Below, piece after piece: positions 24,469 through 54,939 of a stretch of 57,216 nucleotides of DNA (position 1 is its first letter; each line of letters starts with the position of its first letter). Origin of the DNA: a virus (lineage: Duplodnaviria; Caudoviricetes); IMG/VR virus record IMGVR_UViG_3300027877_000007, positions 1 to 57,216 of that record; one strand, given 5' to 3'. Below the pieces are notes generated by a model, which ran no database searches, was not told where the DNA came from, and saw only the letters and a program-made list of their open reading frames with translations. A program made the translations under genes and the position numbers.

Positions 24469-25203
24469 ATGGGTGGTTACGGGAGCGGGGATAAAACCGG
24501 GCATCCGTTCTATGGCAATCAATATGGTATGGGGAAAGGTGACACTGGAAAAAGTGGCACTGGGAAAGGTAAGACCAATGATGGCAGGTATGACACGAAG
24601 AGGGGATACCTTCACGGGCCAACTGCACCAGTTCCAACTACAAAAACCAATCCAAAAAATCCCACCGTCCGTTCTATGGTAGAAGATTACTACAAAAATA
24701 CAGAGTACGCATGGGATTTGGAACACGAACATCTCTACGTCTATAAAAATGATCCGGCAAATGTGCTTGGGACAACCCATGGAGATGGAGAATCTACAGA
24801 GTGGATAACGTCTGAACGGCCAGAACTTAAACTACACATACAGGATGCAGATGCTGTTCATAATCACCCATACGGGAATCCTTCCCTGTCATGGCCGGAT
24901 TTATACCATGCAATTAAGGATAATTGCAGGTCAATTACGGCAATTACAAAAGAAGGACGTTTTTGGACATGTCATAGACCACCCGGAGGATGGGCAAAAA
25001 TAGTAAATGATGCTATTACCTATGAGTTGTCAATCGAGATTGCTAAAGAAGAGTTACGGCAATCGGATTGGTGGCAATCTCTGAAGGCGGATGTAGATTC
25101 CAAGAAAATACCTTCAGGTGAAGCTAACCGGGCGTGGACAGACGAAATTTACAGGCGTGCGTATAAAAAACTGGATTTGGATATTGAGGAAGGTGAAATA
25201 TGA
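24469..25203 (+). CDS. Leader-tagged JAB/MPN-domain effector
   Basis: Leader MGGYGSGDKTGHPFYGNQYG; E...HNHPYGNPSLSWPD matches HxH-x7-S-x2-D. Confidence 0.75.
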   Translation: MGGYGSGDKTGHPFYGNQYGMGKGDTGKSGTGKGKTNDGRYDTKRGYLHGPTAPVPTTKTNPKNPTVRSMVEDYYKNTEYAWDLEHEHLYVYKNDPANVLGTTHGDGESTEWITSERPELKLHIQDADAVHNHPYGNPSLSWPDLYHAIKDNCRSITAITKEGRFWTCHRPPGGWAKIVNDAITYELSIEIAKEELRQSDWWQSLKADVDSKKIPSGEANRAWTDEIYRRAYKKLDLDIEEGEI

Positions 25204-25541
25204 GTGCTGAAAGTATCAGGCAGGAGCTCCGTGAACGGGCAAAAGAACTTGGGATTAACGAGGAAGATATTGTACCTGCAAATCCTGATGTCCTTGACGG
25301 TCAGGACGAGTTATACAGGAATATGGAATTAAGTGAAATCTGTTTCTTCTGTGTTCGTCTGCACGATGACGGTTCGCGCACGTGCGATGCATACCCGGAC
25401 GGGATTCCTCGCCAGATATGGATGGGAGAGAGAGATCATAAAACTCCATTCCCCGGCGATCATGGGTTACAGTTCAAATCCAGAACACCACAGGAAGATA
25501 AAGCTGCCGAATACATAAGCCGCAAGGCACAGGAGTACTGA
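25200..25541 (+). CDS. Cys-rich partner (immunity-like) protein
   Basis: CFFC...CDAYPDGIP..IW.G..DH..PFPGDHGLQF; four paralogs in the window. Confidence 0.75.
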   Translation: MSAESIRQELRERAKELGINEEDIVPANPDVLDGQDELYRNMELSEICFFCVRLHDDGSRTCDAYPDGIPRQIWMGERDHKTPFPGDHGLQFKSRTPQEDKAAEYISRKAQEY

Positions 25542-25542
25542 A

Positions 25543-26316
25543 ATGGGTGGACATGGTTCAGGGGATAGAGTAGGGCATCCCTTTTATGGAAACCAGCATG
25601 GGACAGGACGGGCAACCAAAGGCGGATTTGGTGCGGCATCAAAAAAGTATGCGGGGCCAACAGCAAAACCGCCAGTCAGTTCCAGAACTACGAAACATCC
25701 GGAATCACGTGCAGTGGTAGACGATTTCCTGATGGGGCATAAACACGAAGGCGGGAAAGTTACCATGCACGAACAGCACCAGAAGGACAAGGTTGAGCAC
25801 CTGCATGTGTATAGGAATGGTGAACTTCTGGAGGACGAAGTTGGAGATAGTCATGGTGTAAGTTCAAAATCTCATGACGATTTGCCCGATTCTGATACCA
25901 TCCACAACCATCCGTCAGGGGCAGTTTCTTTCTCTACGGGTGATCTCTTTATGACAATGGCTTATAACGGGAATTCTGCAAGTGTGGTTTCAAATGACGG
26001 CAGGCTTATAACTCTTCATAGACCGGAGGACGGGTGGAAACCGTTAATGGAGAAAATTCTTAAAGTTAAACTCAAAGAAGAATTTGGAGAGGCCATGCGT
26101 GAACATGCAAAGAGGGTTGCATATACAGTAGACCATGACAGAGATGATTATGAAGAAGAACTCCGCGAGGGCGAATGGTATAAGGGAATGAAAGCCAAAA
26201 TCAGAAAAGGCGAACTAACGACGGACGATGTAGATGCAGCTGTTCGTATGGAAACGTGCAGGTATGCTTTAAATAAATATGGATTCGATATCGAAGAAGG
26301 AGAGGTAGATAAATGA
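25543..26316 (+). CDS. Leader-tagged JAB/MPN-domain effector
   Basis: Leader MGGHGSGDRVGHPFYGNQHG; EHLHVY...HNHPSGAVSFSTGD. Confidence 0.75.
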   Translation: MGGHGSGDRVGHPFYGNQHGTGRATKGGFGAASKKYAGPTAKPPVSSRTTKHPESRAVVDDFLMGHKHEGGKVTMHEQHQKDKVEHLHVYRNGELLEDEVGDSHGVSSKSHDDLPDSDTIHNHPSGAVSFSTGDLFMTMAYNGNSASVVSNDGRLITLHRPEDGWKPLMEKILKVKLKEEFGEAMREHAKRVAYTVDHDRDDYEEELREGEWYKGMKAKIRKGELTTDDVDAAVRMETCRYALNKYGFDIEEGEVDK

Positions 26317-26582
26317 CAGACGATGATATTGAGATGGACGGGCCGGACGAAGAGGATAAATTCTACCTGTTAAGTCCTGTCTGTTTCTTCTGCGCACGCC
26401 TGCCCGTGGACGAAGAGAGGGTGTGTCCCGCCTTCCCGGACGGGATACCCACACAAATATGGTATGGAAAGTATGACCATAAAAACCCCTTCCCCGGTGA
26501 TCATGGTCTGCAATTCAAATCGAAAACTCCGAAAGAGGACGAGGCACGTGACTATATAAGTCGCAAGTCACAGGAGTATTGA
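26313..26582 (+). CDS. Cys-rich partner (immunity-like) protein
   Basis: CFFC...CPAFPDGIPTQIWYGKYDHKNPFPGDHGLQF. Confidence 0.75.
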   Translation: MTDDDIEMDGPDEEDKFYLLSPVCFFCARLPVDEERVCPAFPDGIPTQIWYGKYDHKNPFPGDHGLQFKSKTPKEDEARDYISRKSQEY

Positions 26583-26583
26583 G

Positions 26584-27348
26584 ATGGGTGGTGAAGGTAG
26601 CGGGGATAGACCGGGACACGAATTTCACGGCAACCAGTACGGATACGGAAAATCCCCGGATCGGAGTGGTATACCTCCCACAAAATTCAAGAGTGTGGCT
26701 TCATATGGTAAACTTCAGGAAGAAGGATATAAAGGACATACCGGACAATGGGAAGATGCCAAGGATAAATGGCTTGATACTGATTCCAGAGCAAATCCCA
26801 TGACAGACGAAGAGGAATACGCTGTTCATAAAGCCTATGCCGGGAATGTCCATGCATGGGATTTGAACCGATACCTGCGCAGAGAAGAATATGATGCACT
26901 TGTTCATGATCCTGAAAAAATGAAGATTACTATAAACAACATCAAAAATGCAATCAATAAACAACCCACAATTCCAAAAGGAGAAATTCTATGGCGAGGC
27001 GTTCAGGATAGAAATGCCGAAGAGGGGAAAATGCTTGAAGTGGGTGACATAGTTGCAGACAAGGGTTTTACCTCGACAACCTATGATTTAGACCATGCAC
27101 AGAACTTCTGTGACCTGTCTAAATATGATGTCATATATCGTATTGTGACCAGTGGTAAGGAGAAGGCAATACCGGGCAAAGAAAGTGAAACCGAAATGAT
27201 ATTCCAAGCCGGGCAAAAATGGGAAGTTGTAGGTATCGAAGAAAAAACAGTTCTGTATTTAGATCCCGATACTGGTAAGGGTATAGATTCAGAAACAGGT
27301 CAAAGACCTAACAGGTTTCGTGTAATCACTGTTACGGGGATTGATTGA
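26584..27348 (+). CDS. Leader-tagged ADP-ribosyltransferase (VIP2/Alt-like, R-S-E type)
   Basis: Leader MGGEGSGDRPGHEFHGNQYG; LNRYLR; LWRG; GFTSTT; ETE. Confidence 0.85.
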   Translation: MGGEGSGDRPGHEFHGNQYGYGKSPDRSGIPPTKFKSVASYGKLQEEGYKGHTGQWEDAKDKWLDTDSRANPMTDEEEYAVHKAYAGNVHAWDLNRYLRREEYDALVHDPEKMKITINNIKNAINKQPTIPKGEILWRGVQDRNAEEGKMLEVGDIVADKGFTSTTYDLDHAQNFCDLSKYDVIYRIVTSGKEKAIPGKESETEMIFQAGQKWEVVGIEEKTVLYLDPDTGKGIDSETGQRPNRFRVITVTGID

Positions 27349-27349
27349 A

Positions 27350-27484
27350 ATGTCAGAAGGAAGAGGAAAGAAAAAGACCGAAAACTCAAAATGGTCAGGC
27401 GGGTTTGAAAAAGTTGGTCATGTATCCAGTAGGAAACAGGACGAACTTGCTGATTACGTGAAAAAGAAACGAGAGAGCTTATGA
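27350..27484 (+). CDS. 44-aa micro-ORF after the ART, possible partner or partner remnant
   Basis: Hand translation ends QDELADYVKKKRESL, similar to EQELYDYVKKAREKYE of 54936..55163. Confidence 0.5.
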   Translation: MSEGRGKKKTENSKWSGGFEKVGHVSSRKQDELADYVKKKRESL

Positions 27485-27663
27485 AAAAACTCAAAGGATG
27501 GATTAAGTGGCCTACCCTCAAAAAAATGATGATGGGCAGGGATTACAAGGGACATAGTGTTGAAAACGGTGTCTACAAGATAGAAATAGGAAAATCCAAG
27601 TTTGAGGTAGTACCTAAAAATGTGAAGTATTACAACGTCTATAAGATTTACGAGTGATGTATC

Positions 27664-28857
27664 ATGAATGTATGGCAGAGAGCATGTCAGATTATTCCGG
27701 GCGGGAATTGTGTAGTTAGCAAAAGACCTACGAGGTATTGTCCCTCTTCATATCCTTCCCACTACACGTGGGCACACGATAATCAGGTAACTTCGGTTGA
27801 GGGTATAACCTATTATGACTATTCAACCATGGGGATAGGGACGTGTATCTTGGGATACGGAAATGCTGAGGTGGATGCAGCTGTCATACAGGCCATTGCA
27901 GGCGGGAATATGTCATCCCTGAATCCTGTCGAGGAGCTGGAGCTGGCAGAAGAGATGCTGAAAATAAATCCACACATGGACATGTGCAGGTTCGCACGCA
28001 CAGGCGGGGAGGCGTGCGCGATAGCTGCGAGGATTTGTCAGGTATACAATCCGGGCACGTTCCACCTCCAGCACGGGTATTCCGGGTGGCATCTTGGAAA
28101 CCCGGAGAAAGGATTTGGTTACAATTTTGAAACTATGGATGACATATGCCTCTTGAAGAATATCTACGATGAAATATCGTTTGTCATCATGGAGCCTGTC
28201 CGTAATTTCCCGGATAAATCCTGTCACCTCATGAAACAGGTAAGAAAGTGGTGTACTGAAAACAATGTCCCGCTTATCTTTGACGAAATAACTTCAGGGT
28301 TCAGGTGTAATATTGGAGGGTATCATGCAATTAAAGGGGTGTATCCAGATATTGCCGTCTACGGGAAGGCACTGGGTAACGGTTATCCCATTGCCTGTGT
28401 GGTGGGGAAAAGAGAGCTCATGGAAAAAGCTGAAGATACGTTCATATCATCCACCTTCTGGTCAGAGAGGACGGGGTATGCGGCTGCACTCGCAACGCTC
28501 GAACAGATGAAGAAACAACATGTCCCGGACAGGCTTATCCGTATGGGAAAAGAGGTTCAGGATGGGTGGTTGCATCTTGCAGACTTGGCAGACATAGACA
28601 TCGAAGTTACGGGCATACCTCCACTGGCACATTTCGCGTTCAAAGAAAATAACAATGAATGTATGACCATGTATACACAGGAGATGTTGAAGAGAGGTAT
28701 TCTTGCCACAGACCAGTTCTACGCCTCCATTGCACACAGACCTATCGACATTGAAACATACATGTTCCACGTGGATAAAATATTCACCATGATTGCAGAG
28801 GGGAAAGTGAAGCTGGAAGGAGAAGTAAAGGATATGGGATGGAGGCGGCCAAATTGA
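27664..28857 (+). CDS. Class III PLP aminotransferase (GSA-like)
   Basis: CILGY; RFARTGGEA; FDEITSGFR; PDIAVYGKALGNGYP. Confidence 0.9.
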   Translation: MNVWQRACQIIPGGNCVVSKRPTRYCPSSYPSHYTWAHDNQVTSVEGITYYDYSTMGIGTCILGYGNAEVDAAVIQAIAGGNMSSLNPVEELELAEEMLKINPHMDMCRFARTGGEACAIAARICQVYNPGTFHLQHGYSGWHLGNPEKGFGYNFETMDDICLLKNIYDEISFVIMEPVRNFPDKSCHLMKQVRKWCTENNVPLIFDEITSGFRCNIGGYHAIKGVYPDIAVYGKALGNGYPIACVVGKRELMEKAEDTFISSTFWSERTGYAAALATLEQMKKQHVPDRLIRMGKEVQDGWLHLADLADIDIEVTGIPPLAHFAFKENNNECMTMYTQEMLKRGILATDQFYASIAHRPIDIETYMFHVDKIFTMIAEGKVKLEGEVKDMGWRRPN

Positions 28858-29226
28858 GGTTACGAGATAAAATTGAAGGGCCAAGCCCCTGTGATACCTG
28901 CATGCTCTACCCTTACGAGAAGAAATCTATAGAGCCTAACGGGGAGGAACTTATTGATCTTGTCCCTATGGATGACTGTCCCATGTCATTTGACGTTACG
29001 GCAGAGGATGACCTTGATCCTCTGTCGATAAGTGTGTGGGAGAAGATTACACGCATGACAGGATGTACATGCTGGAGGCAGAAAATATGACGTACGATCC
29101 ATTAAACGGGGAAAAAGAGAACTGGATTCAGATGTATGGAATGAAGGCACTGATTATCCTTCTTTTTATATTCATAAGTGTTTTATTCCTGTATATCATT
29201 ATAGATAAATGTGCATTGATATGCTG

Positions 29227-29904
29227 ATGAGAGTAATTGTCTTTGGCGGTTCTGGCGTAATTGGCCGGGCTGTAGTGGATGCCCTGATTGCAGGGGATTA
29301 CACTGTGTATAATGCAGACCTTGAAGATTCCGGGCGTGGAACGTTTTTAAGGACAGATATTTTAAGCATGCACTCAATATACCGTACCATGGAGTTGGTA
29401 GGTGACATTTACGGAGTAGTGAACTGCACCTATCCCCGGACAAAACGATACATGACCGATCCGTGGTATGATACCCTGACCGATGACTACCAGACGTTCT
29501 TCACCCAGCATCTGGTATCCTCTATTTCTCTTATGAAATTGTGCCGCGAATTCGGAGTGAAAAATATCGTTGTCATGTCATCGATGTACGGGAAGAAAGT
29601 TCCTGAGCAGTGGATGTATGACGGAACAGAAAAAAGAAAATCTCCCCTTGAATACGGGATGGCAAAAGCAGCTCTGAACCATATGGTTCAATATTTATCC
29701 AGAGAAGGGATGCACATAAACGCTATTGCACCCGGTGGAATAGAATCAGATGATATGCCTACACTGTTCACAATAAAATATCGCACAAAGGCCGATTTTA
29801 CAAAACCGTGCGAAGTTGCAGGCACGGTAAAATACTTGTTATCGCAAGAAGGTCAAGGAATAAACGGACAGGTGATTACAGTAGATGGAGGTTTTTCTGT
29901 ATGA
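29227..29904 (+). CDS. SDR oxidoreductase (PtmA-like)
   Basis: GGSGVIG; VNCTYPR; SSMYG; YGMAK; INAIAPGG; NGQVITVDGG. Confidence 0.85.
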   Translation: MRVIVFGGSGVIGRAVVDALIAGDYTVYNADLEDSGRGTFLRTDILSMHSIYRTMELVGDIYGVVNCTYPRTKRYMTDPWYDTLTDDYQTFFTQHLVSSISLMKLCREFGVKNIVVMSSMYGKKVPEQWMYDGTEKRKSPLEYGMAKAALNHMVQYLSREGMHINAIAPGGIESDDMPTLFTIKYRTKADFTKPCEVAGTVKYLLSQEGQGINGQVITVDGGFSV

Positions 29905-30262
29905 GTGTAAGGGACTGGATGGAAAATATACCCTGTTTTGAAAAACCGTGTTTCGGCATGTGGGGATATGTCGAGGGAGGGGTAAACCGTGGGTGTGATA
30001 AGTGCGAGTGTCTGTGGCATTGCCGTGAAAAATACTTTTCAAGGAGTACAGGGCAGGGATACATAAAATTATGAATTACGGGAGGACAGAAATGAAAGTC
30101 TGTTGGGATTGTAAATATTGGGTATCAGATAAACCAGAACAGCCAGACTGTCAATTTGGATGGTGTCATAGGTTTCCTCCACAACTGCTTGGGAGAGAAG
30201 CATCCAATCCCAAAGTATTTCGTATGAATTGGTGTGGAGAGTGGGACTATAAGGAGTAATGT

Positions 30263-31216
30263 ATGAAAAAAATACTGTTTCCTGTTGGATGCCGTTCTGA
30301 TGAAGGATTATCACTGCCAGTAATAAAACGGCTGAAAGAGGCGGGATATAATGTTCGCATTTGCGAACTTGATCCGAATAACTTTGTCTATTCCTACCAG
30401 CTGGTGGATTTCCTTTGCGCAGGAAACGACACGGTTGAGGTGAAAACAAGAGGCAAGCCGGACTTGGTTGTTATTGTGGGTGACAGGGTAGAGATGACTG
30501 CGGCTGCGGCAGCTGCCTTCCACAATCGTATTCCAATCTGTCACGTGTACGCAGGAGTAACAAATATTCCAATAACCACGTTCGATGATATAGACCGCCA
30601 CTGCATAACCCTATGGGCTGACATGCATCTCTGTGAGAATAAAGAAGCTTGCCAAATGGTGGAAAGTATCTGCTCTGGAATTAAAGCCTGTTACCCGGAG
30701 GTTGTGGGTATCACGCATCTGGATGATATGGAGATTGATGAATCTTTAGTGCCTTATCACACAAATCCAGAACCAATGATGTATTTTCCAAAATTTGTTT
30801 TTCCAACAGATTATGACCTAATCCTCTACAACACTCCAACTACAACCGATTACAGGCCGGAAGTCTATGCAATGGAGGAAATAATTGCACGGGAAGGAAA
30901 TTACAGGATTCTCATAGGCGGAAACCCGGACGGGGAGGCAGAAACAGAAACAAAATTAATTGAAATGATGAACCAGTTTTATCCCAGCCTCCCGCGTGCA
31001 CAGTTCTTGGGACTTCTTAAAAACTGCAAGAGGTTCATAACAAATAGCTCCAGCGCTATCTACGAAGCTCCATACTTCTTAAAACCAGAACAGATAATCA
31101 TGATTGGCCAGAGGAACAGGAACAGGCCGAAAGTAGACTGTCAGCCGGGCGGGAGTGACCGGATAGTTAAGGCAATTCAAGAGTATCTGGAGGCATTTGA
31201 TGATACGAAGATGTAA
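30263..31216 (+). CDS. UDP-GlcNAc 2-epimerase, hydrolysing type (NeuC-like)
   Basis: GCRSDEG; PDLVVIVGDRVE; D..RH.IT; NPD; ITNSSS..YEAP; IGQRN. Confidence 0.85.
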   Translation: MKKILFPVGCRSDEGLSLPVIKRLKEAGYNVRICELDPNNFVYSYQLVDFLCAGNDTVEVKTRGKPDLVVIVGDRVEMTAAAAAAFHNRIPICHVYAGVTNIPITTFDDIDRHCITLWADMHLCENKEACQMVESICSGIKACYPEVVGITHLDDMEIDESLVPYHTNPEPMMYFPKFVFPTDYDLILYNTPTTTDYRPEVYAMEEIIAREGNYRILIGGNPDGEAETETKLIEMMNQFYPSLPRAQFLGLLKNCKRFITNSSSAIYEAPYFLKPEQIIMIGQRNRNRPKVDCQPGGSDRIVKAIQEYLEAFDDTKM

Positions 31217-31764
31217 AACCTGTGGGAAGGAAGCTCCTGAAATGTTCTCTCCTGCATGGAACAAGGAAAAATGGCATGCCAATATGTCAGGGGTGAATGT
31301 TATTGCCGTCTGGTGTCCCAAGCATGAAAAAGAGTGCCATCAGTTTTGGGAAGATCATTGTGCAGGAAGAGGAATAATTGAGTACAGGTCGGGAGAATGA
31401 AACACAACTGGGTTTTTGTCAAGGCAGAGGATGACGAATTTTTTGATGTTGAAAATGAGGACGTTGTAAAAGGGATATCTCTGTTATACCTATGTGCAAA
31501 TCCGGGATGTGATAAATATTTATCATTTATAGTACGGCGCGAAGGGATACCCATGTTATTACGTTTTGTTACAGAATCACAACGGAAAGTGGATGTGGAA
31601 TGTACTATACGAGGGTGTGAATGTCATGGAGTATAAGCGTACTGACTGGATACTGGTAGATACGACAACCAGTACGAACGGGACAGACATAATCTACGTC
31701 AGAGAATGTAACGATCATGAACACAGATACGCACTGGCCAAAGTAACCGTCCGGGAGAGAAAAG

Positions 31765-32527: not shown

Positions 32528-32538
32528 GGTGAAATAAA

Positions 32539-36684: not shown

Positions 36685-37164
36685 ATGGTCTTAACTACAG
36701 AACAGGCCACACGCCTGATAAAAAGTATCTGGAGAAGCGAGCTGGAATACAAGGAAACCGTGGATTTGGCAGAGGAATTACAGGCACTCCCTTCCCGTAC
36801 TCCAGAACAGGAAATAACGCTGACGCATTACCTCAATAAAATCCAGCACGACAGGGATGTTATACAGATATGGGTGCAGAAAATAAAGGCGGCTGGGATA
36901 TCGAACCTGAAAACACAGGCAAATCTCATCATCCGCACACAAATCATGGACGAACTTAAATCCATGATACAAGAAGAAATAGAAAGGCTTGATACCCAAT
37001 GGAACGATTTTGTAGTTGAATATGGGGCACGAAACCCTGAAGATCAGAATCAGGAAGAATACGACAACTCCTATGCAAAATATATAAAACGTAAAACACG
37101 ACTACAAAAACAGGCTACGATTCTCGATAATCTGAAACTATCGACAACGGTGTTTACAGTATGA
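36685..37164 (+). CDS. Helical/coiled-coil protein (possible assembly chaperone)
   Basis: E/K/Q/L-rich; lies between fibre genes; GGTGA RBS. Confidence 0.6.
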   Translation: MVLTTEQATRLIKSIWRSELEYKETVDLAEELQALPSRTPEQEITLTHYLNKIQHDRDVIQIWVQKIKAAGISNLKTQANLIIRTQIMDELKSMIQEEIERLDTQWNDFVVEYGARNPEDQNQEEYDNSYAKYIKRKTRLQKQATILDNLKLSTTVFTV

Positions 37165-39188: not shown

Positions 39189-39201
39189 TTTCTAATTTAA
39201 C

Positions 39202-44142: not shown

Positions 44143-44145
44143 AAA

Positions 44146-44433
44146 ATGACACATGTAACAAAAGGAGATACAATCAGGCTAAATTCGGCGTTCCATACGT
44201 ATGACGGTGTTGGAACGGATCCGGCCACATGCACGTTATACGTTTATGATGGTGATCATAACACACTCACGTCTGCAACTACGACAAGCAGTGTTATGAA
44301 TGGGAGTACGACAGGAGAATATTACTATGACTATACCACAGTCAATGTAGGCGCTCATTTCTATGAATTCAGAGGTTCGTTGGAAGGGTTTACAATTTCA
44401 GACAGGGGCACGTTCTATGTAACGTGGGCATAA
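44146..44433 (+). CDS. Small Ig-like/baseplate-adaptor-like protein
   Basis: GDTIRL..F..DP..L.VY..TGEYYYDY pattern. Confidence 0.6.
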   Translation: MTHVTKGDTIRLNSAFHTYDGVGTDPATCTLYVYDGDHNTLTSATTTSSVMNGSTTGEYYYDYTTVNVGAHFYEFRGSLEGFTISDRGTFYVTWA

Positions 44434-44476
44434 AATGATGAAGAAAATGATAATGTTAAATGAAGGTGAGTAAAAA

Positions 44477-46329: not shown

Positions 46330-47826
46330 ATGGTAAGTGCAAAAATCACGGAGGTGTATAACTGGCTTTCTGATGGTAACGAGATCACAGGCCAACAGAT
46401 AGGCGAACTTATACAGGATGCCAGACCACGTGCGTATGAGATGAAAAAACTGTATGGGAGATACGAGGGGAAAACAGATGATGTCCCTATTCTCACCAGA
46501 AAGTATGAGATAGATAATATCTCGAAGATTAACAACAAAATCGCAAATGATTTCTTCGGGGATATTGTGAACACGAAGGTAGGTTACTTCGCTGGAAAAC
46601 CTATCGTCTATAAGTATCCTGATGTAAAGGATGCTGACGAGGAGCTATTGGACGGTTTCCTGAAACGAAATGCTTACGAGGACTTGGATTCCGAAACCGC
46701 AAAGATGGCAGCTATCTGTGGTTCTGGCGCACGGTACTTATTCATAAATCTGGATGGCGAGGCCAGCGTGATAAACGTGCCTCCGTGGGAGTGCATATTC
46801 ATATACGATGAGATAGGTGTAACCGATGCTCCGTATGCAATCCGTTACTACCAGATTTACGTGGGAGATAAAACCTTTACAAAGGCAGAATTCTTTGACG
46901 AAGATAAAATAACCTACTGGATACGCGAGGGTGACATGACTTCTGAAGGTTCGTTTATCTTGGATTCTTCAGAAGAGGCCAATCCGATTGCGCATCTCAT
47001 GGACGGGTGTCCGTTAATCTGCTTCCCTAACAACGAAGAGATGCAGGGTGACTGTGAAAAAGTCCTTACCCTCATAGATGGGTATGACCGCACACTTTCA
47101 GACATGAATTCTGAAATTGAACAATTCCGTTTGGCATACATGGCGTTCCACGGGATGGTGCCCGATGATACGACACTTAAAAAGGCACTCCAGACAGGTG
47201 CGTTCGGATTCCCGGAAAAAGATTCCAGAATGGAATTCGTTACCAAGAATATCAATGCACAGGCCGTAGAAAACCACCTCCAGATGCTGGAGAAGAACAT
47301 TATCTACTTCGCACAGTCTGTCAGGTTTACGGATGAGGCGTTCGGTGGTGCAAGTGGCGTGGCCATGAAGTTCAAAATCTTCAATCTGGAAGCCAAGTGT
47401 ATGGTCTGTGAACGTAAATTCACACGTGCACTGCGCAGGATGCTGACCGTTCTTAACGGATACTTCAGCCGTAAACTTGCAGCTGGCGTGTATGAACCGT
47501 ATGACTGGGAATTTGTATTCACACGTAACTTCCCGCTGAACCTTATGGAAGAGGCACAGACACTCTCAACCCTGAAGGGACTTGTCAGTGACGAAACTGC
47601 ACTGGGACTTATGTCATTCATCGAAGATCCACAGGAAGAAATGGAGAAGATGAAGAAGGAACAGGAAGATTACATGAAGTACCAGAAAAAGCTCATGGAG
47701 GAACAAGGGCCGATGCCCGGTGAGGAAGCACCTCCAGAAGAGGGTGAAGAGGAAGCTCCAGAAGGCGAAGAGAAAGCTCCTGAAGAGGATGCCATGAGCA
47801 TGTTCAAGAAAATGACAGGCGGATAA
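46330..47826 (+). CDS. Portal protein, SPP1 gp6-like
   Basis: NNKIANDFFGDIVNTKVGYFAGKP; FPNNEE.GD.E.V..LID.YD; ASGVAMKFK; FTRNFP.N. Confidence 0.93.
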   Translation: MVSAKITEVYNWLSDGNEITGQQIGELIQDARPRAYEMKKLYGRYEGKTDDVPILTRKYEIDNISKINNKIANDFFGDIVNTKVGYFAGKPIVYKYPDVKDADEELLDGFLKRNAYEDLDSETAKMAAICGSGARYLFINLDGEASVINVPPWECIFIYDEIGVTDAPYAIRYYQIYVGDKTFTKAEFFDEDKITYWIREGDMTSEGSFILDSSEEANPIAHLMDGCPLICFPNNEEMQGDCEKVLTLIDGYDRTLSDMNSEIEQFRLAYMAFHGMVPDDTTLKKALQTGAFGFPEKDSRMEFVTKNINAQAVENHLQMLEKNIIYFAQSVRFTDEAFGGASGVAMKFKIFNLEAKCMVCERKFTRALRRMLTVLNGYFSRKLAAGVYEPYDWEFVFTRNFPLNLMEEAQTLSTLKGLVSDETALGLMSFIEDPQEEMEKMKKEQEDYMKYQKKLMEEQGPMPGEEAPPEEGEEEAPEGEEKAPEEDAMSMFKKMTGG

Positions 47827-47832
47827 CCAGAC

Positions 47833-48921
47833 ATGCCGGACTTTGATGAATCAGAAGGCCGATGGGTGACGATTAACGGCACACATATTTTTATCACGAA
47901 AGGGGATACTGTAGGTTCATCTATCAACAAAATGAAACTTGGTAGTAAAACCTCTGGCCGTCATCCAACATTCGTCAAAGTAGCTCCAAAAGGAGCGGCA
48001 CCTATGACACAGGTACACAAAGACGTTGTGGGTGTCTTTAACAAATATAAAGACAAATACGACACTGGTCACAAAGAGCTTAAAGAACTGCATAAAAAAC
48101 AGATGGATTTTGAAGGTAAAAGAGATGCGGCATGGAAGGCTCATCAAGCCGCTACCGATCCAAAAGAAAAAGATAAGCTCCTGAAAGAATATAGGGAGCT
48201 AACCGAAAGAGTAACAGAGGCCAGATGGGAATGTGTACAAAAAACAAAAGAAATCGGGGCCATAACCACAAATATCCGTGAAGATGCACGTAAGGTATTA
48301 TTTCCTACCACATCTACTCCTACTGGAAATTTAAAATACACGGCTCAGGATGCCGATTTACCGCAAGGCACACGGATTGTCTGTGATATAGCACAGGCTA
48401 ATCTTAACAGTTTTTTTGTTTCAAACAACTTACCAGATGTCCCGGTCTGGAGGTACAGAGATGCTGACCAGAGAAGCTGTGGTGGAAGCGTGGGGATATG
48501 GCTTGCTGATATAGCTACCACAGAAGTTGCGATGCATGAAATGGCACATTGTATCGAGGGCAGGGATAAGGGGCTTTTCGCACGTATAATAAAATTCTAT
48601 AACGACAGGACATCCGGGGATAAAATAGAATGGCTGGCACAAAAATATCCGAATTCCGGGTACAGACCAGATGAAAGAGTTAAAGCAGATAAATGGCCGG
48701 ATGAATATTGCGGGAAATATTATGACGATCAATCGACAGAAATTCTGGCTATGGGGTTTACGATGTTGTGGAGAAGCCCGGTAAAATTTGCAATGAAAGA
48801 TCCGGAATACTTCAATTTCATGGTAGATATCTGTAAAACACCTGTAAAGAAAATGCGTAGTCCACGCACACGGAAACCTAAAGCTCCAAAACCCTCTACA
48901 CCAAGAAGGAGAAAGAAATGA
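47833..48921 (+). CDS. Leader-tagged HExxH metallopeptidase effector
   Basis: Leader MPDFDESEGRWVTINGTHIFI; HEMAH; YCGKYY...TEILAMG. Confidence 0.75.
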   Translation: MPDFDESEGRWVTINGTHIFITKGDTVGSSINKMKLGSKTSGRHPTFVKVAPKGAAPMTQVHKDVVGVFNKYKDKYDTGHKELKELHKKQMDFEGKRDAAWKAHQAATDPKEKDKLLKEYRELTERVTEARWECVQKTKEIGAITTNIREDARKVLFPTTSTPTGNLKYTAQDADLPQGTRIVCDIAQANLNSFFVSNNLPDVPVWRYRDADQRSCGGSVGIWLADIATTEVAMHEMAHCIEGRDKGLFARIIKFYNDRTSGDKIEWLAQKYPNSGYRPDERVKADKWPDEYCGKYYDDQSTEILAMGFTMLWRSPVKFAMKDPEYFNFMVDICKTPVKKMRSPRTRKPKAPKPSTPRRRKK

Positions 48922-49172
48922 CAGACGTAACGATTGAGATTGATGAAACGTTCGCTGTAACTGACGGGAAGAAATGGTTATCTCCGAATAAAAAAACAGA
49001 AGAATTCCTGAATGTAGTTGCCTCACCGGATGCCGTTCTGGACAGGACAGTGTATGTCCCTGACATGGCAAAAGCTATGGCCAATCTCGCACTTGAATTC
49101 AGTAAGAGTGCCAGAATAGAGAAAATCGAGAATGATAAAACTATGGAATTACCGAAAGGGGCGAAATACTAA
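48918..49172 (+). CDS. Small partner (immunity candidate)
   Basis: ATGA-coupled to the peptidase gene; 84 aa. Confidence 0.6.
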   Translation: MTDVTIEIDETFAVTDGKKWLSPNKKTEEFLNVVASPDAVLDRTVYVPDMAKAMANLALEFSKSARIEKIENDKTMELPKGAKY

Positions 49173-49927
49173 TGGGTGGGCCGGGAAGTGGATGGACGGC
49201 AGCTGGCGGTCACGTACCCGGCAGTCAGGGTGGCAAGCTCACGCCTACGGAGAAGGCCGTTTACCAGAGGGTTTTTGATGTTCATTCAACTCATTATGAA
49301 CCGGGTACAATTCCATATGAACATAGAACACAATTTGCAGAAGAGGAAAAGAAATTCTCTCCTGAAGCCCTGAAATACGGTGAGAATCTAATGAAAAAAC
49401 GGAGTACTTATTATGATTATGTCCATACGGATTTTGGCCCTATAAACAGGTATCTTCGTGGGCAGGAGCACGGGTTCAAAGGAGATATAGGAGTGCTTGA
49501 AAATCGTGTTTCTATGCTGGATAATTACATCAAAGAAGCTCCTCCACTTGCAAAAGACGTGGTTATGTTTCGTGGTGTAGGAGAAGAAATAGGAGAGGCG
49601 TTCGCAAATGCGAACGAAGGAGATATAATCCGGGATAAGGCATTCCAGTCACATTCACTTTACTTGGGAAAGGCTCTCAGCTTCGCAGAACACTGGGCAG
49701 GCAAAACAAATAAAGAAGGCAGGATACCTGTAATTGGTGGTAAGAAACTAACCATTATCCGTGCATTAACTGGCGGTAAGACGAAGGGAATCTATCAGGA
49801 CAACTATGGGGAGATGGAAGTTACGGTGGCACGTGGAACACCATGGGTGGTCTTGGGTAAGGAAGTTTTCCGGGATGCAACCAACACCGAAATCCACCTC
49901 ATAACAGTAGGTGAAATAAATGACTGA
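49172..49927 (+). CDS. Leader-tagged ADP-ribosyltransferase
   Basis: Leader MGGPGSGWTAAGGHVP; INRYLRG; MFRG; AFQSHS; EME. Confidence 0.85.
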   Translation: MGGPGSGWTAAGGHVPGSQGGKLTPTEKAVYQRVFDVHSTHYEPGTIPYEHRTQFAEEEKKFSPEALKYGENLMKKRSTYYDYVHTDFGPINRYLRGQEHGFKGDIGVLENRVSMLDNYIKEAPPLAKDVVMFRGVGEEIGEAFANANEGDIIRDKAFQSHSLYLGKALSFAEHWAGKTNKEGRIPVIGGKKLTIIRALTGGKTKGIYQDNYGEMEVTVARGTPWVVLGKEVFRDATNTEIHLITVGEIND

Positions 49928-50417
49928 AGAAGAGTTCGCAAATGCGAACGATGATGAAATTGTCAAAGAAGCTGTCGAAGAAACTATCAAAGAAAATCCC
50001 AAGCCGGTAAAGGAGAAGAGCAGGTTTACAGGCGTATATGAGATATTCAAACCCGAAGAGTGGGAGGAAAAATCCATCCTTGAAAAGATAGAGGTAGTAA
50101 AACCAGCTGATCTTGTCTACGAGAAGGACGGCGTGCAGATATATAAATCAGACGAGGCCACGGTTATGATAAAAATTCTCCAGTATAAACCTCTGAAGTT
50201 TGAGGCCATTTACTCCATGCACGGGGATGAAGAACCAGAGGAGCTGGAAGAAGAAATGGATGAAGAGGTTGAGGAAGCTCCTAACCCGGAAGAAGTGTCA
50301 GACATAGAGCGTGCTGAAAACCCGGAGGAAACCACGGAGCCTGTTCCACCAAAACCGTCAGAAGTGTCAGACAAGCGTCTTGCTGAAATCCCGGAGGAAG
50401 ATCATGCCGGAGTATGA
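49920..50417 (+). CDS. Acidic partner protein (domain shared with 52744..53331)
   Basis: VYEKDGVQIY..VMIKI...PLKF. Confidence 0.7.
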   Translation: MTEEEFANANDDEIVKEAVEETIKENPKPVKEKSRFTGVYEIFKPEEWEEKSILEKIEVVKPADLVYEKDGVQIYKSDEATVMIKILQYKPLKFEAIYSMHGDEEPEELEEEMDEEVEEAPNPEEVSDIERAENPEETTEPVPPKPSEVSDKRLAEIPEEDHAGV

Positions 50418-51801
50418 CGAATCTGAAGGGACGTGGGTAACTATCAATGGAAACCACATCTTCATCCGTGAAGGTCAATCGGTGGGTTCAGCCATCAAAG
50501 AAAGGTTTGGTACTGGTGGTGGAGGTAGAGGTGGAAAAGGCGGAAAGGGTGGAGGTAAAATTGCATTAGAGGACGATAAGAAAAAGCTTGTAGAATCGCG
50601 GGTATTCAATAAGGAAGAATACGAGAAGATGGACATGCAGGCACGCAGGGAAGCATGGGAGAAGATGGATGTGGACGAACGGGATGAAATAACCAATGCC
50701 CGTGAATCTGTCCCTGCACGCGAGAAAGACTTACTTAAACCTCTTGGCAAGTGGCAGAATACGGGAGATATGGAGGCCGATATTGACAACAGGTTAGAGA
50801 AAGCTGCACTTCATATGTCTGATGATTCACTTGCCATTATAAAGGGTGATATAGGCGGGTATCAGGGTGTTTTGCGTGACGCTGGTATTGATGAAGAAAA
50901 AATAGGTTTTCTTATGTGTGCGGCTACAGATGCCCTGATTGCGCAGGAATTGGAGGCGCAGAACAGGCAGCTGGGTGATCATGGTGCACATCACGTATCG
51001 GGGAATATAGACAGGGCATTTGACATCTTCTCAATCACACCTATGTTGGAAACACCTCAGCAACAGGCAGAACTTATCACGGCCATGATATTCCATGACA
51101 TGGGATATATGACAGAACCTTCAAGGACGTTTCTGGATGAGGGGCATCCACGATGGGCTGAGCAGTATTTCAACGAAGAACTCTACAGTGAAGTATCACA
51201 CGTATTGGGCAAGGAATCGGCTATAAACATCGCACATCTCATAAGCACGCACGATGGCACGGAGTTGGACTGGGATCACGATCCTGTGGGAAGTGCACTA
51301 CGTCTGGCCGATAATACGGCACTCTTTGAGTATGATAAACTCCCTCCCATGTTTCGTGAAGTCCCGGAAAATCTTGACCTTCTTGAACTGGTAAACAAGG
51401 GCATGGTTGATGTGGATGTTGCACGTGCACAAATGCTTATCAATATCACCCACTCCACGTCTATAACTCCGGCTGAAAAATTAAGATTTAATAATGCAGC
51501 TAATGAAATGACGGCATTTACTACTAAAACAACACTTGGTATGTTAGGTGCTGATATAGATGAAATCAAGTGGATGGATGGCCACCCGGTGTTCATACTT
51601 GTACAAAACGATGAATCCAAAAGATACCAAGAAACTCTCGACTTGGGACAGGACAAGTTTATGAAATTTAAGAAGGCGTATGGTGATACTTCACCCGACC
51701 TGACCTTTACATTGAGAAATCCAAAAACAGGAAAGGTTGTTCTGGAAGGCAAATATCTGACGACTGACCAATATAATAGTGAATATTTGGGAGTGGGGTG
51801 A
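50404..51801 (+). CDS. Leader-tagged HD-domain phosphohydrolase effector
   Basis: Likely start MPEYDESEGTWVTINGNHIFI; DHGAHH..FHDMGY..GH..THD..LAD. Confidence 0.75.
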   Translation: MPEYDESEGTWVTINGNHIFIREGQSVGSAIKERFGTGGGGRGGKGGKGGGKIALEDDKKKLVESRVFNKEEYEKMDMQARREAWEKMDVDERDEITNARESVPAREKDLLKPLGKWQNTGDMEADIDNRLEKAALHMSDDSLAIIKGDIGGYQGVLRDAGIDEEKIGFLMCAATDALIAQELEAQNRQLGDHGAHHVSGNIDRAFDIFSITPMLETPQQQAELITAMIFHDMGYMTEPSRTFLDEGHPRWAEQYFNEELYSEVSHVLGKESAINIAHLISTHDGTELDWDHDPVGSALRLADNTALFEYDKLPPMFREVPENLDLLELVNKGMVDVDVARAQMLINITHSTSITPAEKLRFNNAANEMTAFTTKTTLGMLGADIDEIKWMDGHPVFILVQNDESKRYQETLDLGQDKFMKFKKAYGDTSPDLTFTLRNPKTGKVVLEGKYLTTDQYNSEYLGVG

Positions 51802-51802
51802 A

Positions 51803-52747
51803 ATGGGAGGCCCGGGTTCAGGGTGGTTCGCATCGGCGGGGCACGTCAGTCATAAACCAAAGTATGCCATAGGACGGCAGGCAGCCGAAGAGTACGTAGG
51901 GGAAACGTATCTTGGGAGGGACATACGGAAACAGCCGGAGAAGTTGCCGGGTGCATATAAATACAAACCTCCAGCCGGGAAGAAAACACGTCCACCGAAG
52001 AATCCCATTAAAAAATACTACAAGGACGTACCGGGGGCAAAGGATGATAATGATGCCGTAACACGGTTAAAGACATACTTAAACCCTGCATTTGCAAATA
52101 CACCGGATTGCCAGAAACAGTTGCAGGCAATATGTGATTTGCCCGATATACAAAGGGACGAGTTGCTTAGAGGGATGGCGATTCTGGATGGCACAGGAGT
52201 GACAATAAACGGGATTGTCATTGCACCTCCACCCAATTCTCCGGATTCAATGGGGATGTATCGTGGACACGAAAACGAGATTTATATTCATCCAAATACT
52301 GTTACTGAAACAGGCCCGCGTCCGGGAGCTGCTCAACGTCTGGAACTGAAAAGACAAGAGGCGATAGCGAGTGTTGAAGGCAATCCGGGTCTAACACGTG
52401 AGAGAAAGGACGAAATGATTAAAATATTCAAGTCAATTAAAAGAAACAATGTTGGAGATGATAAGAATTTTCTGGCCGCGTGTATAGCTCATGAAAACAA
52501 CCATGCGAAACATGCCGTAAAAGCAAAAGATCCGTGGAAGTGTATGACTGCAATGATGAGAACGATGAGGAAACATAAAGTAACAGACGCTGATTGCGCA
52601 CAGGTGAGTGCATATACATTTACAAGTTTCGGTGCCGGTGATGCCAGAGAAGTGTATGCAGAGGTAGGAGCTGCCCTGTTTACCGGGGAAACATATGTTC
52701 CTCAAAGTCTGATTAACGCCTATTATGACAGGAAGTGGTATCTGTGA
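51803..52747 (+). CDS. Leader-tagged HExxH metallopeptidase effector
   Basis: Leader MGGPGSGWFASAGHV; HENNH; VSAY..REVYAE. Confidence 0.72.
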   Translation: MGGPGSGWFASAGHVSHKPKYAIGRQAAEEYVGETYLGRDIRKQPEKLPGAYKYKPPAGKKTRPPKNPIKKYYKDVPGAKDDNDAVTRLKTYLNPAFANTPDCQKQLQAICDLPDIQRDELLRGMAILDGTGVTINGIVIAPPPNSPDSMGMYRGHENEIYIHPNTVTETGPRPGAAQRLELKRQEAIASVEGNPGLTRERKDEMIKIFKSIKRNNVGDDKNFLAACIAHENNHAKHAVKAKDPWKCMTAMMRTMRKHKVTDADCAQVSAYTFTSFGAGDAREVYAEVGAALFTGETYVPQSLINAYYDRKWYL

Positions 52748-53331
52748 GTTACGGAATCTGTTTCGACTGCAAGCACTTCAAGATAATAAGCTGCACCGCC
52801 TATCCGAAGATAAACAGTATACCCATCGAGATTCTGAACGGGGAGGTAGACCATCACAGACCATACAAGGGAGATCATGGCATCCAGTTTGAACCAATGC
52901 AAGAGGGACAAGATGAGGTGAAAACAGAGCCAGAAGTAGAATCGACAGAAGAACAACCCATTCCAGAAGCAGAACAAATCAACCAAGAACCAGAACAGAC
53001 AGAGGTATCCGATGAACAAGCGATTCAAGAAGGCAAAGAAGGAATTGAGGAAGTTACCGAAACTGATATTGAAAAGCCTGAAGGTGAGGAAGAGGCTGTA
53101 GAGAAACTGGATGATTTTAAGGTTGCAAGAATTGTATACGACATGAACGGCGTGCAGATTTACGAGAACGAGAACGCCGTCATAATGGTCAAGGTAGTTA
53201 ATAAAAACCCGTTGAAGTTCGTGGTAAACTATGCAGAGAAAATTGAGGATACAACGAAGGACGATGGTTCAGACCAGACAACAGGGCTGGGTAAGAGGAT
53301 GATGGACTACGAGGGAGTTACATTTGATTGA
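52744..53331 (+). CDS. Fusion of Cys-rich partner domain, acidic linker and GVQIY domain
   Basis: CFDC..CTAYP..IP..GEVDH..PYKGDHGIQF, then VYDMNGVQIY..PLKF; GTGA overlap. Confidence 0.72.
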   Translation: MSYGICFDCKHFKIISCTAYPKINSIPIEILNGEVDHHRPYKGDHGIQFEPMQEGQDEVKTEPEVESTEEQPIPEAEQINQEPEQTEVSDEQAIQEGKEGIEEVTETDIEKPEGEEEAVEKLDDFKVARIVYDMNGVQIYENENAVIMVKVVNKNPLKFVVNYAEKIEDTTKDDGSDQTTGLGKRMMDYEGVTFD

Positions 53332-53341
53332 GGTGAAATAA

Positions 53342-54052
53342 ATGGGTGGTCAGGGTAGTGGATGGTTCGCATCGGCTGGTCATGTCCCACGTATCAAGAG
53401 GGATAGTATAACCGTCCCGAAGTATAACCCGAAGGCGTATAAGGATCATTATGCGCTTATGAAAGAGAAGAAGATAAATGACGATGAATATGAATCCATC
53501 CGTCAGTATATCGGACTTGATGGTAGTCATAGGGGTATAAACAAAGCTCTTCGCGCAGGGGATGATACGAACCAGTGGATAAACAACGAGGTTAAAAGAA
53601 TTAGAAGTGCTATGAATAACAATCCTCTTGAAAAAGACGTAGTGGTTTATCGTGGTGTCCCGGACAGGATTGCACAAAAAGCTATAAATGCGGGAAAAAT
53701 TCACGATGAGGGATTCTGGTCTACATCAGCCGATTTTGAAATATCATCTGACCATTTTGCAGCTCCTTCCTCGTTGGATAATAAATCAAAATACATTAAT
53801 TTTTTCCGTATCGTTGCAAAGAAAGGAGAACCGGGCCTGTATATCACTTCACATCAGGAAGAGGAATTCCTTTTGTCTGGAGGGAGATTCCGTGTGAAAC
53901 AGGTTGTGCTTACTCCGGTTGTAAAGATAGAAGGGCACCCGGTTATGAGCTATGGAAAAACGAACCGTATCATTGAACTGGAGAGGATTACAAAATCTAC
54001 AACACCAAGACCACGCACGCAGTCAGGAACGAAATTCAGGAGAGATTACTAA
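53342..54052 (+). CDS. Leader-tagged ADP-ribosyltransferase
   Basis: Leader MGGQGSGWFASAGHVP; INKALR; VYRG; GFWSTS; EEE. Confidence 0.85.
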   Translation: MGGQGSGWFASAGHVPRIKRDSITVPKYNPKAYKDHYALMKEKKINDDEYESIRQYIGLDGSHRGINKALRAGDDTNQWINNEVKRIRSAMNNNPLEKDVVVYRGVPDRIAQKAINAGKIHDEGFWSTSADFEISSDHFAAPSSLDNKSKYINFFRIVAKKGEPGLYITSHQEEEFLLSGGRFRVKQVVLTPVVKIEGHPVMSYGKTNRIIELERITKSTTPRPRTQSGTKFRRDY

Positions 54053-54939
54053 TGGTAGGGAATGAAAACAGTGGGGATAAGGTAGGACATCCATATTACG
54101 GCAACCAGCATGGGCCGGGACGTGCAATAAAAACTTCAAAGGGAAAAACTCCGGGATGCAAGCAGTGGTCAGGGAAAATAAATAAACAGTTCGCAAAAAA
54201 AGTTGAATTTACCAACAAAACACCACAGGAAATTAAGGATGATGTTTATAAGCAAATGTCAGAACTGACCGAAATTACAGGTATACAACCTGAGCATTAT
54301 ATCGTATATACACGTGATGAATCCAGTTTTGGCAGGTACGCATCTCTTGGAGAAACAGCTACATGGGATTCCTCTAATCGTTATTTGGGAATGGCAGACC
54401 ACGCCACAAAGGAATGGATTAAAAACAATATCCCTATAAAATATGAGGAAAATAAAAAGAATTTGACTGAACAGGTTGAGAAAGCCCGGTCAGAAGGGAA
54501 TTATTCGTATGCCCGTGACTTGCAGGAAAAACTTGATAATCTGGAAGAAAGGGCTGGATATGAGGGCAAGACGTACGTAGGTAACGGAAAAAGAAACCCT
54601 ATTATTGACCATGAGTTTTTCCACGAAATGACAATCCAGAGGATGCATCCAAAGGAAAAGCCGGATAAAGTACCAACAAATGTCAGGGAGATGTCTACTA
54701 TAACGTCTAAGCTAAGAGATAAATTATCAAACTGCTCTCTTGATTGCCGGGTTTTCATGCAGAAAGTCAAGGTTTCTCATTATGGAGCAGAAAGGACATC
54801 AAATGCTGAAATTCCATGGGAAGAGGCATCCGCTGAAACTTACGCCTACTGGAAAGCTGGAAACGAGATTCCAAAAAGTATTGAAACGATATTTTTAAGT
54901 CTTGAATCCGGAGATATATATTCAGAGGTATTTAAATGA
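54052..54939 (+). CDS. Leader-tagged HExxH metallopeptidase effector
   Basis: Leader MVGNENSGDKVGHPYYGNQHG; HEFFH; VSHYG..EEASAE. Confidence 0.72.
   Translation: MVGNENSGDKVGHPYYGNQHGPGRAIKTSKGKTPGCKQWSGKINKQFAKKVEFTNKTPQEIKDDVYKQMSELTEITGIQPEHYIVYTRDESSFGRYASLGETATWDSSNRYLGMADHATKEWIKNNIPIKYEENKKNLTEQVEKARSEGNYSYARDLQEKLDNLEERAGYEGKTYVGNGKRNPIIDHEFFHEMTIQRMHPKEKPDKVPTNVREMSTITSKLRDKLSNCSLDCRVFMQKVKVSHYGAERTSNAEIPWEEASAETYAYWKAGNEIPKSIETIFLSLESGDIYSEVFK

Follow-up and report, generated by a model that had tools for sequence, protein, structure and literature searches.

In bacteriophage T4, unrelated proteins that are packaged into the head, including the injected ADP-ribosyltransferase (ART) Alt, have in common a short N-terminal peptide, the capsid targeting sequence. 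These targeting peptides are strictly N-terminal and are removed by the prohead protease. The cargo-loading peptides of encapsulins are short conserved terminal peptides on diverse enzymes, which they direct into an HK97-fold shell, and pre-toxin boundary motifs such as VENN of CdiA are short conserved peptides that precede a toxin domain that varies and can be exchanged. Enzymes that are packaged in the head and injected are the first weapon a phage brings against host defenses, and the entry of diverse proteins into capsids is understood for only a few model phages. Here we describe short conserved peptides, termed leaders, at the N-termini of nine enzyme-like genes of a tailed phage (Duplodnaviria; Caudoviricetes). 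The DNA analyzed, called the window below, is the whole of the IMG/VR virus record IMGVR_UViG_3300027877_000007 (57,216 bases; completeness estimate 76%), in which nearly all long open reading frames (ORFs) lie on the plus strand. Where such a peptide precedes a domain at any position in a protein, we call it a module-head peptide.

As described in the text of Iyer et al. (2017; PMC5512222), polyvalent proteins carry two to fifteen effector domains per polypeptide. The window resembles them in its repertoire (ART, zincin-like peptidase, RadC/JAB, and MuF, to which relatives add kinase, GNAT, PBECR, and LPD), in its link to virion genes (MuF and portal) with predicted co-injection, and in that its leader motifs occur at domain junctions of such giant proteins. 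This conflict-enzyme repertoire is represented by three ART genes recognized by Pfam, by a JAMM motif with a weak RadC/JAMM fold, and by three genes recognized by an HExxH motif only. However, the window genes each consist of a leader plus one recognizable domain and are separately translated. Because each domain has a gene of its own, the window proteins lack the multidomain organization of polyvalent proteins. The terms linker, GNQ, glycine-rich, and low-complexity have no matches in the text of PMC5512222, supplementary tables not covered, and junction peptides therefore seem not to be described there.

The text of Jamet et al. (2017; PMC5576092) on MuF polymorphic toxins offers a second comparison. 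There, too, a MuF head protein is combined with variable toxin-like enzymes such as ARTs, and small downstream genes could encode immunity proteins. In contrast, the window MuF stands alone (305 aa, MuF domain alone), the enzymes are unfused with the ARTs encoded by separate genes, and no MuF-toxin fusion is present. The terms linker, junction, cleav, and conserved motif have no matches in the text of PMC5576092. Furthermore, we found no description of the motifs in the literature searched with motif strings and on MuF/injection, capsid targeting, and polyvalent/cargo topics, supplements not covered. What is known, then, is head-packaged effectors; the novelty lies in an “exploded” polyvalent arsenal and in a family of interchangeable module-head peptides that numbers four or more.

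As short conserved terminal peptides common to unrelated proteins, the leaders appear to resemble T4 targeting sequences, encapsulin cargo peptides, and pre-toxin motifs in logic only. We know of no sequence resemblance between the T4 capsid targeting sequences and the window leaders. Unlike the T4 peptides, window-type motifs are also found in internal and C-terminal positions and form at least four classes. Encapsulins are not viruses, and binding to a shell protein has been demonstrated there, whereas a docking partner for the window leaders is hypothetical. VENN-type motifs differ in secretion context and in sequence, and window-type motifs repeat many times per protein.

Our comparisons show, at the level of protein sequence, that a module-head peptide stands at the N-terminal border of effector domains in polyvalent phage virion proteins associated with MuF. 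We read the window genes as probable single-domain, unfused (split) versions of such virion effectors, each with its own module-head peptide. Loading into the head is the most likely role of the peptides, and a site for proteolytic processing is the main rival. For the statement as a whole, which comprises module-head peptides, a split array, and a cargo tag, we estimate a probability of roughly 0.5. The leader-bearing genes of the window are as follows, with approximate leader coordinates in parentheses.

24469..25203, plus strand: JAB/JAMM-like protein, class A leader (~24469-24540), motif HxHx7Sx2D
25543..26316, plus strand: JAB/JAMM-like protein, class A leader (~25543-25614), motif HxHx7Sx2D
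26584..27348, plus strand: ART, class A leader (~26584-26655), PF03496 at E 2.6e-9
47833..48921, plus strand: HExxH protein (putative zincin), class C leader (~47833-47931)
49172..49927, plus strand: ART, class B leader (~49172-49237), PF03496 at E 2.8e-10
50404..51801, plus strand: HD-motif protein, class C leader (~50404-50502)
51803..52747, plus strand: HExxH protein (putative zincin), class B leader (~51803-51850)
53342..54052, plus strand: ART, class B leader (~53342-53389), PF03496 at E 3.4e-12
54052..54939, plus strand: HExxH protein (putative zincin), class A leader (~54052-54126)

A first-pass annotation of the window had assigned nine leaders in three classes to these gene starts, and translation bears this out: class A begins ORFs 24469, 25543, 26584, and 54052; class B begins 49172, 51803, and 53342; and class C begins 47833 and 50404. 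All nine are plus-strand leaders at the extreme N-terminus, with the motif starting no more than 12 residues from the initiator Met. A six-frame regular-expression scan found no further copies of A, B, or C in the window. Degenerate DNA patterns for the three classes gave 4, 3, and 2 matches, respectively, whereas 100 shuffles that preserved dinucleotide composition averaged 0.00 matches, a post hoc comparison since the patterns were derived from the same data.

Within a class, most codon differences between leaders are synonymous. The annotation had described the differences between the leaders of 51803 and 53342 as mostly synonymous, and among 16 codons we indeed count 7 identical, 7 synonymous, and 2 non-synonymous. 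The remaining class A and class B pairs show 3-10 synonymous and 2-7 non-synonymous differences, and the class C pair has 9 identical, 13 synonymous, and 11 non-synonymous codons of 33. We therefore reject recent duplication or gene conversion of the leaders, because the high synonymous divergence excludes it and points to selection on the peptide.

Leader class is independent of the enzyme body, as the annotation had also proposed. With leaders removed, the three ARTs (leaders A, B, and B) are 24-31% identical in pairwise comparison, the class-A-led ART 26584 having 28-31% identity to the class-B-led ARTs; the two JAB-like proteins are 27% identical; and BLAST detects no similarity among the three HExxH proteins. 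The HExxH proteins carry leaders C, B, and A, which had raised the idea of one peptidase per leader class. The chance of that distribution is about 0.29 by our own calculation, and we did not retain the idea. The leaders have no hydrophobic core, which rules them out as signal peptides.

Each leader gene closely adjoins or overlaps the preceding gene and has a Shine-Dalgarno-like purine run of its own. The intervening ORFs are in other frames, and stop codons separate the leader genes. These features identify separate genes, and we reject both read-through of one polyprotein and a single giant ORF. One further sequence is loosely like the class B core: a 44-codon ORF directly after the ART stop (27350-27484) contains an internal SGGFEKVGHVS, which could be a decayed leader or chance.

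Direct evidence for exchange of leaders among homologous bodies comes from sequence comparison with a relative, contig IMGVR_UViG_3300027887_000012 (loci L280, L261, and L357), in which the genes are split as in the window and the portal is 46% identical to that of the window. Its HD protein (L261:8475-9797) is 46% identical to 50404 over 391 aa, in an alignment that begins immediately after the leaders, and has a class D leader where the window protein has class C. Likewise, a JAB in L261 is 33% identical to the 24469 JAB over 113 aa and carries leader D in place of A. These homologues carry exchanged leaders, in agreement with the shuffling put forward in the annotation. In the same contig, the portal gene is followed by a class-B-led ART that is 32% identical to 53342, and 15 of the first 16 leader residues are identical once its TTG start is read as Met. 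Leaders D, B, D, D, and C head the genes adjoining its MuF-fusion gene, and the protein with the class C leader has ART-like motifs by our own reading.

The same peptides are widespread in other viral contigs, where at least four classes can be distinguished.

Class A: (K)GD-xx-GHPF(H/Y)GNQ(Y/W)
Class B: GGPGSGW-x4-GHV
Class C: an acidic run, then W(I/V)T(V/I)NGxH(I/V)x(I/V)
Class D: GSGNxGHxGRPG

A GG-x-GSG...GH core is common to A, B, and D, and the A and D leaders align over MGG-x-GSG(D/N)..GH. A degenerate DNA pattern for the class A peptide GHP(F/Y)(Y/H)GNQ matches at least 117 IMG/VR loci, with 140 matches listed, nearly all in long ORFs. Among the matches listed, the core is encoded by 101 distinct DNA versions that use all synonymous codons at the fixed positions. 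The upstream K, G, and D are kept in 51, 84, and 65 of these 101 versions, respectively, though the pattern does not impose them.

These data bear on the idea that the motifs have no specific partner and serve passively, either as flexible linkers or as joints at which cassettes recombine and are shuffled. Motifs do lie at module boundaries, and modules clearly have been shuffled. But a linker hardly needs 8-11 near-invariant non-glycine positions, and 101 DNA versions with all synonymous codons leave too little nucleotide identity for homologous recombination. We consider this explanation highly improbable.

Many motif-bearing proteins are very long. The loci listed contain 380 distinct motif-bearing ORFs, and in the giant ones class A repeats every 150-400 aa, for example eight times in an ORF of 1997 aa, seven times in one of 2096 aa, and five times in one of 2070 aa. 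Among the giants, L042 has seven copies and L095 has eight. A 3054-aa protein (L060; IMGVR_UViG_3300032516_000159, 679-9840) carries eight copies of A together with B at residues 26 and 158 and D at 318 and 477. Between the motifs, Pfam recognizes GNAT (395-440), DRAT-type ART (824-913), and MuF (1746-2114) domains. This MuF domain is apparently interrupted by an intein (Intein_splicing 1746-2076, MuF C-terminus 2077-2114). The leader of 49172, including its GHVPGSQGG tail, likewise matches internal motifs of giant IMG/VR ORFs.

Of the 61 loci that the class B pattern matched, we judged 13, with 15 instances, to be genuine by context and the others to be GC-rich chance frames. The class C pattern matched at least 119 IMG/VR loci, and a class C profile of 44 positions matched 1578 proteins (E <= 0.001) among 1.84 billion representatives. 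Architectures were counted in the best 150 of these 1578 proteins. Sixty-two exceed 600 aa, and 32 of the 62 have two or more copies; the other 88 are no longer than 600 aa, and in 77 of them the motif is within the first 70 residues. Giant proteins with class C motifs have ART, PARP, and zincin-like domains downstream of the motifs. The class C profile retrieved nothing at E <= 10 from PDB sequences, and no Pfam model covers the motifs themselves.

In the annotation, the motifs were N-terminal leaders of three classes that could mean three docking sites or copy-number tiers. The wider survey revises this picture. We counted an instance as N-terminal when it lay no more than 70 residues after the upstream stop codon. 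Among the instances listed, class A (n = 338) is internal in 205, N-terminal in 118, and C-terminal in 15, and class C (n = 127) is internal in 40, N-terminal in 74, and C-terminal in 13, where some C-terminal instances may be ORFs cut by the locus end. Class B has 8 internal and 7 N-terminal instances and class D has 3 and 5, with none C-terminal in either. Motifs thus also occur inside proteins of up to 3054 aa, and the added class D brings the number of classes to at least four, with A, B, and D together in L060 and C and D together in 5 of the best 150 class C proteins. The existence of internal copies, of mixed classes within one polypeptide, and of at least four classes leaves the docking-site or copy-number-tier idea without support. 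Where domains have genes of their own, the motif is on the N side and therefore goes with the domain after it.

The internal copies also bring forward the main rival, in which the motifs are principally proteolytic processing sites. Zincin-like/JAB peptidases or a prohead protease would cut the junctions, and the leader of a split gene would be a propeptide or recognition element. This fits the presence of motifs at every junction in giant proteins, the location of most listed class A instances at internal domain boundaries, the occurrence of five putative peptidases (three HExxH, two JAMM) among the nine window proteins with leaders, and the class A leader being modeled as disordered and therefore accessible. 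In motif-bearing giant ORFs, HExxH occurs 16 times versus 2.9 expected by composition, and embedded zincin-like metallopeptidases are proposed, in the text of PMC5512222, to process polyvalent proteins. Yet HExxH is present in only 16 of the 53 giant ORFs and absent from 37, and none of the 53 has a JAMM motif. Cleavage at four motifs of different chemistry, one of them the beta-hairpin-like class C, would call for several specificities. No prohead protease gene was recognizable among the portal-to-capsid-like genes of the portal relatives inspected, as judged by ORF order and a MuF regular expression. Moreover, with the motif so close to the initiator Met in the nine window genes, a cut upstream of it releases nothing, yet the peptide is under purifying selection. 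We judge it unlikely that processing is the main function. If the motifs are processing sites instead of tags, the peptides would define what is recognized as substrate by the zincin-like and JAB domains common in polyvalent proteins.

The modules that follow the motifs were clustered (442 downstream segments in 314 clusters), and Pfam scans were run for 140 of 217 class A representatives and for all 97 representatives of B, C, and D. Most modules have no Pfam match; the listed families total no more than 32 member-matches for A and 31 for B/C/D. Class A modules include ART (4), PI3/PI4-kinase-like (4), DRAT (3), pentapeptide (3), MuF (3), and GNAT (2), with NUDIX, Zeta, and HipA-like once each. 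Modules after B, C, and D include ART (6), LPD3 (3), DUF2213 (2), and NAD:arginine ART (PF01129; 2), and single matches there include ART-PolyVal, Kinase-PolyVal, PBECR1, Zeta, YkuD, Tlde1, 2H, SAM lyase, MuF, and GNAT. The Pfam-matched modules are typical conflict domains. Short conserved peptides on effector modules in hundreds of viral contigs would provide a sequence handle for injected effectors in metagenomes, in which most modules lack a Pfam match.

The annotation held that its proposal would fail if the motifs were common in non-viral proteins. When bacterial and archaeal genomes totaling 596 Gb were searched with the class A pattern, 45 loci contained 46 matches, when about 35 are expected by chance (our own estimate, at ~35 bits). 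Only about 11-12 of the matches are credible, having an aromatic residue after GNQ, a long ORF, and the usual context; the majority of the credible ones come from contigs of metagenome-assembled genomes. As judged by this pattern, class A is restricted to viruses and nearly absent from cellular genomes. When leaders (24-35 aa) were compared with cultured phages by tblastn, class A gave three weak matches and classes C and D gave none. The best class A match is the “internal head protein” of Xanthomonas phage Rb1, which has one GHPFRGNQH at residue 739 of 1222.

Two head genes frame much of the window array.

46330..47826, plus strand: SPP1-type portal protein, PF05133 at E 8.8e-92
55170..56087, plus strand: stand-alone MuF (SPP1 gp7-like) minor head protein, PF04233 at E 1.6e-11, with matches to PHROG head-morphogenesis families

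Six of the nine leader genes are between the portal gene (46330) and the MuF gene (55170), and the remaining three are elsewhere. The portal is ~43% identical to those of its nearest cultured phages. A single-sequence portal query found no relatives; a two-sequence alignment found 80 that are 37-60% identical, 20 of which were inspected. Their usual gene order is portal, MuF (~300 aa), scaffold-like, and capsid-like, as read from ORF sizes, N-termini, and a MuF regular expression and not from family scans. Because just one of the 20 has leader genes, the window array between portal and MuF is an insertion. The major capsid gene is not on the window contig.

The annotation had also suggested a search for the motifs inside head proteins, and they are found there: in MuF-containing ORFs, in the Rb1 protein, and in a fusion of an ART-like segment to a homologue of “head maturation protease.” The last is a 609-aa prophage protein (L145, 2379-4205) in which a class C leader and an ART-like segment precede a domain that is 93-99% identical to Klebsiella phage proteins without the N-terminal part, such as L424 (RCIP0114, 3953-5122). 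The N-terminal gain consists of the leader plus an ART-like segment of 223 aa. Homologues of the DUF2213-type domain are annotated as “head maturation protease,” and in Klebsiella phages the homologous gene lies between the MuF and major capsid genes.

A motif that accompanies an effector domain when it is alone, in giants, and when fused to a head protein might also act after assembly, as a signal for ejection or translocation through portal and tail or by binding a conserved host factor after injection. The position of the motif on the N side of modules and the disordered Gly-rich spacers that follow the leaders in structural models are compatible with such a role. However, none of our searches suggested a host partner, and motif contigs come from many metagenome sets, so that any target in the host would need to be almost universal. 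A post-assembly signal seems to us quite improbable, less so than a passive joint.

A head-loading tag remains the favored explanation for three reasons. First, selection has kept the peptide at the extreme N-terminus in nine genes that are each translated separately, a position in which a scissile site by itself would serve no purpose. Second, the motif is position-tolerant, like a docking motif. Third, the genes are in the head module, and published work predicts that ARTs linked to MuF and portal are packaged and injected; in the texts of PMC5512222 and PMC9503650, this prediction covers ARTs fused to or adjoining MuF and portal. The polyvalent-type protein is represented here, and in one relative, by an array of single-domain genes (ARTs, JAB-like, HExxH, and HD-motif). 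The main array is inserted between the portal and MuF genes and a second block lies inside the sugar-biosynthesis cluster. Each gene has a module-head peptide at its first residues, with peptides exchanged among homologous bodies. We infer that the peptide acts on the domain after it and is read in trans by the virion assembly machinery, most likely as a cargo tag by which the enzyme would enter the procapsid and be injected together with the DNA. The leader may afterwards be trimmed by the co-encoded peptidases, and tag and processing functions could be combined in this way, by analogy with T4.

Several observations weigh against this proposal. The JAB-JAB-ART block (24.5-27.3 kb) is among sugar-biosynthesis genes, 19 kb from the portal, and IMGVR_UViG_3300027887_000012 is the only one of the 20 inspected portal relatives with leader genes. 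Among the loci listed, a MuF signature is near the motifs in only 18 of 117 for class A and 22 of 119 for class C (1 of 12 for class B), by a crude regular expression applied to loci averaging ~8.5 kb. In addition, the motif is kept where an address looks redundant, inside MuF polyproteins and on the ART-head-protein fusion, and addressing would not need several copies per polypeptide.

A broader version of the proposal is that the four classes are general cargo-loading tags of tailed phages, so that every protein bearing one, whether at its start or between domains, would dock to a conserved component inside the procapsid and reach the next host along with the DNA. We advance this only tentatively and regard it as somewhat doubtful. 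If true, such tags would be to phages what cargo peptides are to encapsulins, and thousands of uncultured phages would use them to build up and swap sets of injected enzymes. In either version, a tag would be a transferable signal by which proteins of choice could be loaded into phage particles. The peptides would also yield a rule, open to testing, for the construction and shuffling of arsenals in fused or split form.

The enzyme labels of the annotation fared unevenly. The ART label is solid, with PF03496 matches on all three proteins (E 3e-9 to 3e-12). For the JAB label, the metal-site motif E...HxHx7Sx2D is exact in both 24469 and 25543, and the RadC Pfam match of 25543 is sub-threshold (E 0.078). 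An AlphaFold2 (AF2) model of 25543 from a three-sequence input has a predicted local distance difference test score (pLDDT) of 67.4, with leader residues 1-35 below 50. Its best structural row is RadC (2qlc_C; Z 6.2; root-mean-square deviation 3.4 over 100 residues), followed by Rpn11, AMSH, CSN5, and JAMM1 at Z ~5. Foldseek returned nothing at E <= 0.001 for this model, and its top rows are nonetheless of the same family. This modeled evidence for a JAB fold in the 24469 and 25543 proteins is weak but consistent. The weak Foldseek rows also include bacterial Ubl-deubiquitinase and BubCD entries (8tyx_B, 9ea4), which hint, no more, that phage JABs could counter ubiquitin-like or CBASS-type conjugation defenses. 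Word-indexed protein searches retrieved only the query itself for the JAB and two uninformative proteins for the class A leader region.

The peptidase label is founded on the HExxH motif and on ESM-Atlas leads, and Pfam and PHROG have no match for these proteins apart from phrog_33618 (function unknown) at residues 232-333 of 47833. The single-sequence AF2 model of 47833 (pLDDT 52.6) is too poor for a structure search; in it, at low confidence, residues 9-22 of the class C leader form a beta-hairpin, and residues 25-58 are disordered. As leads only, the ESM-Atlas neighbors of 51803 (TM 0.49-0.55) are C-terminal parts of MuF-family proteins, and the nearest clusters of 54052 are viral “zinc metallopeptidase” (score 0.94). 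The HD label of 50404 goes back to the motif; Pfam, PHROG, PDB sequences, and cultured phages contain no match. Queried with the JAB, HD, and 54052 proteins, PDB sequences yielded no row better than chance.

Five leaderless small ORFs accompany the leader-bearing genes, and 25200, 26313, 49920, and 52735 each come immediately behind a leader-bearing enzyme gene.

25200..25541, plus strand: Cys-rich, directly after a JAB gene
26313..26582, plus strand: Cys-rich, paralogue of 25200
48918..49172, plus strand: between leader-bearing genes, no family match
49920..50417, plus strand: acidic, with a domain in common with the C-terminus of 52735
52735..53331, plus strand: Cys-rich N-terminal domain plus a C-terminal domain as in 49920

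The Cys-rich ORFs form a family in which 25200 shares 65% identity with 26313, and each of these two shares 36-45% with the N-terminus of 52735 (45% for 25200). The C-terminus of 52735 is 42% identical to 49920 over 59 aa. No Pfam or PHROG family match explains the leaderless ORFs; 25200 has no Pfam match and, among PHROG families, matches only phrog_33375 (function unknown). They may be immunity, inhibitor, or partner proteins.

The remaining landmarks of the window are as follows.

7165, 10564, and 19663: three DNA methyltransferases
13050-14921: small and large terminase
22095-31216: nonulosonic-acid-type sugar cluster
37161-46063: beta-helix tail-fibre-like genes

The gene order is unusual, with the terminase subunits 31 kb upstream of the portal and methyltransferases, sugar genes, and tail-fibre-like beta-helix genes in between. 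The sugar cluster encodes NeuB, PseB-like Polysacc_synt_2, CMP-sugar cytidylyltransferase, class III aminotransferase, SDR, and UDP-GlcNAc 2-epimerase, and it is interrupted midway by the JAB/Cys-rich/JAB/Cys-rich/ART block (24469-27348).

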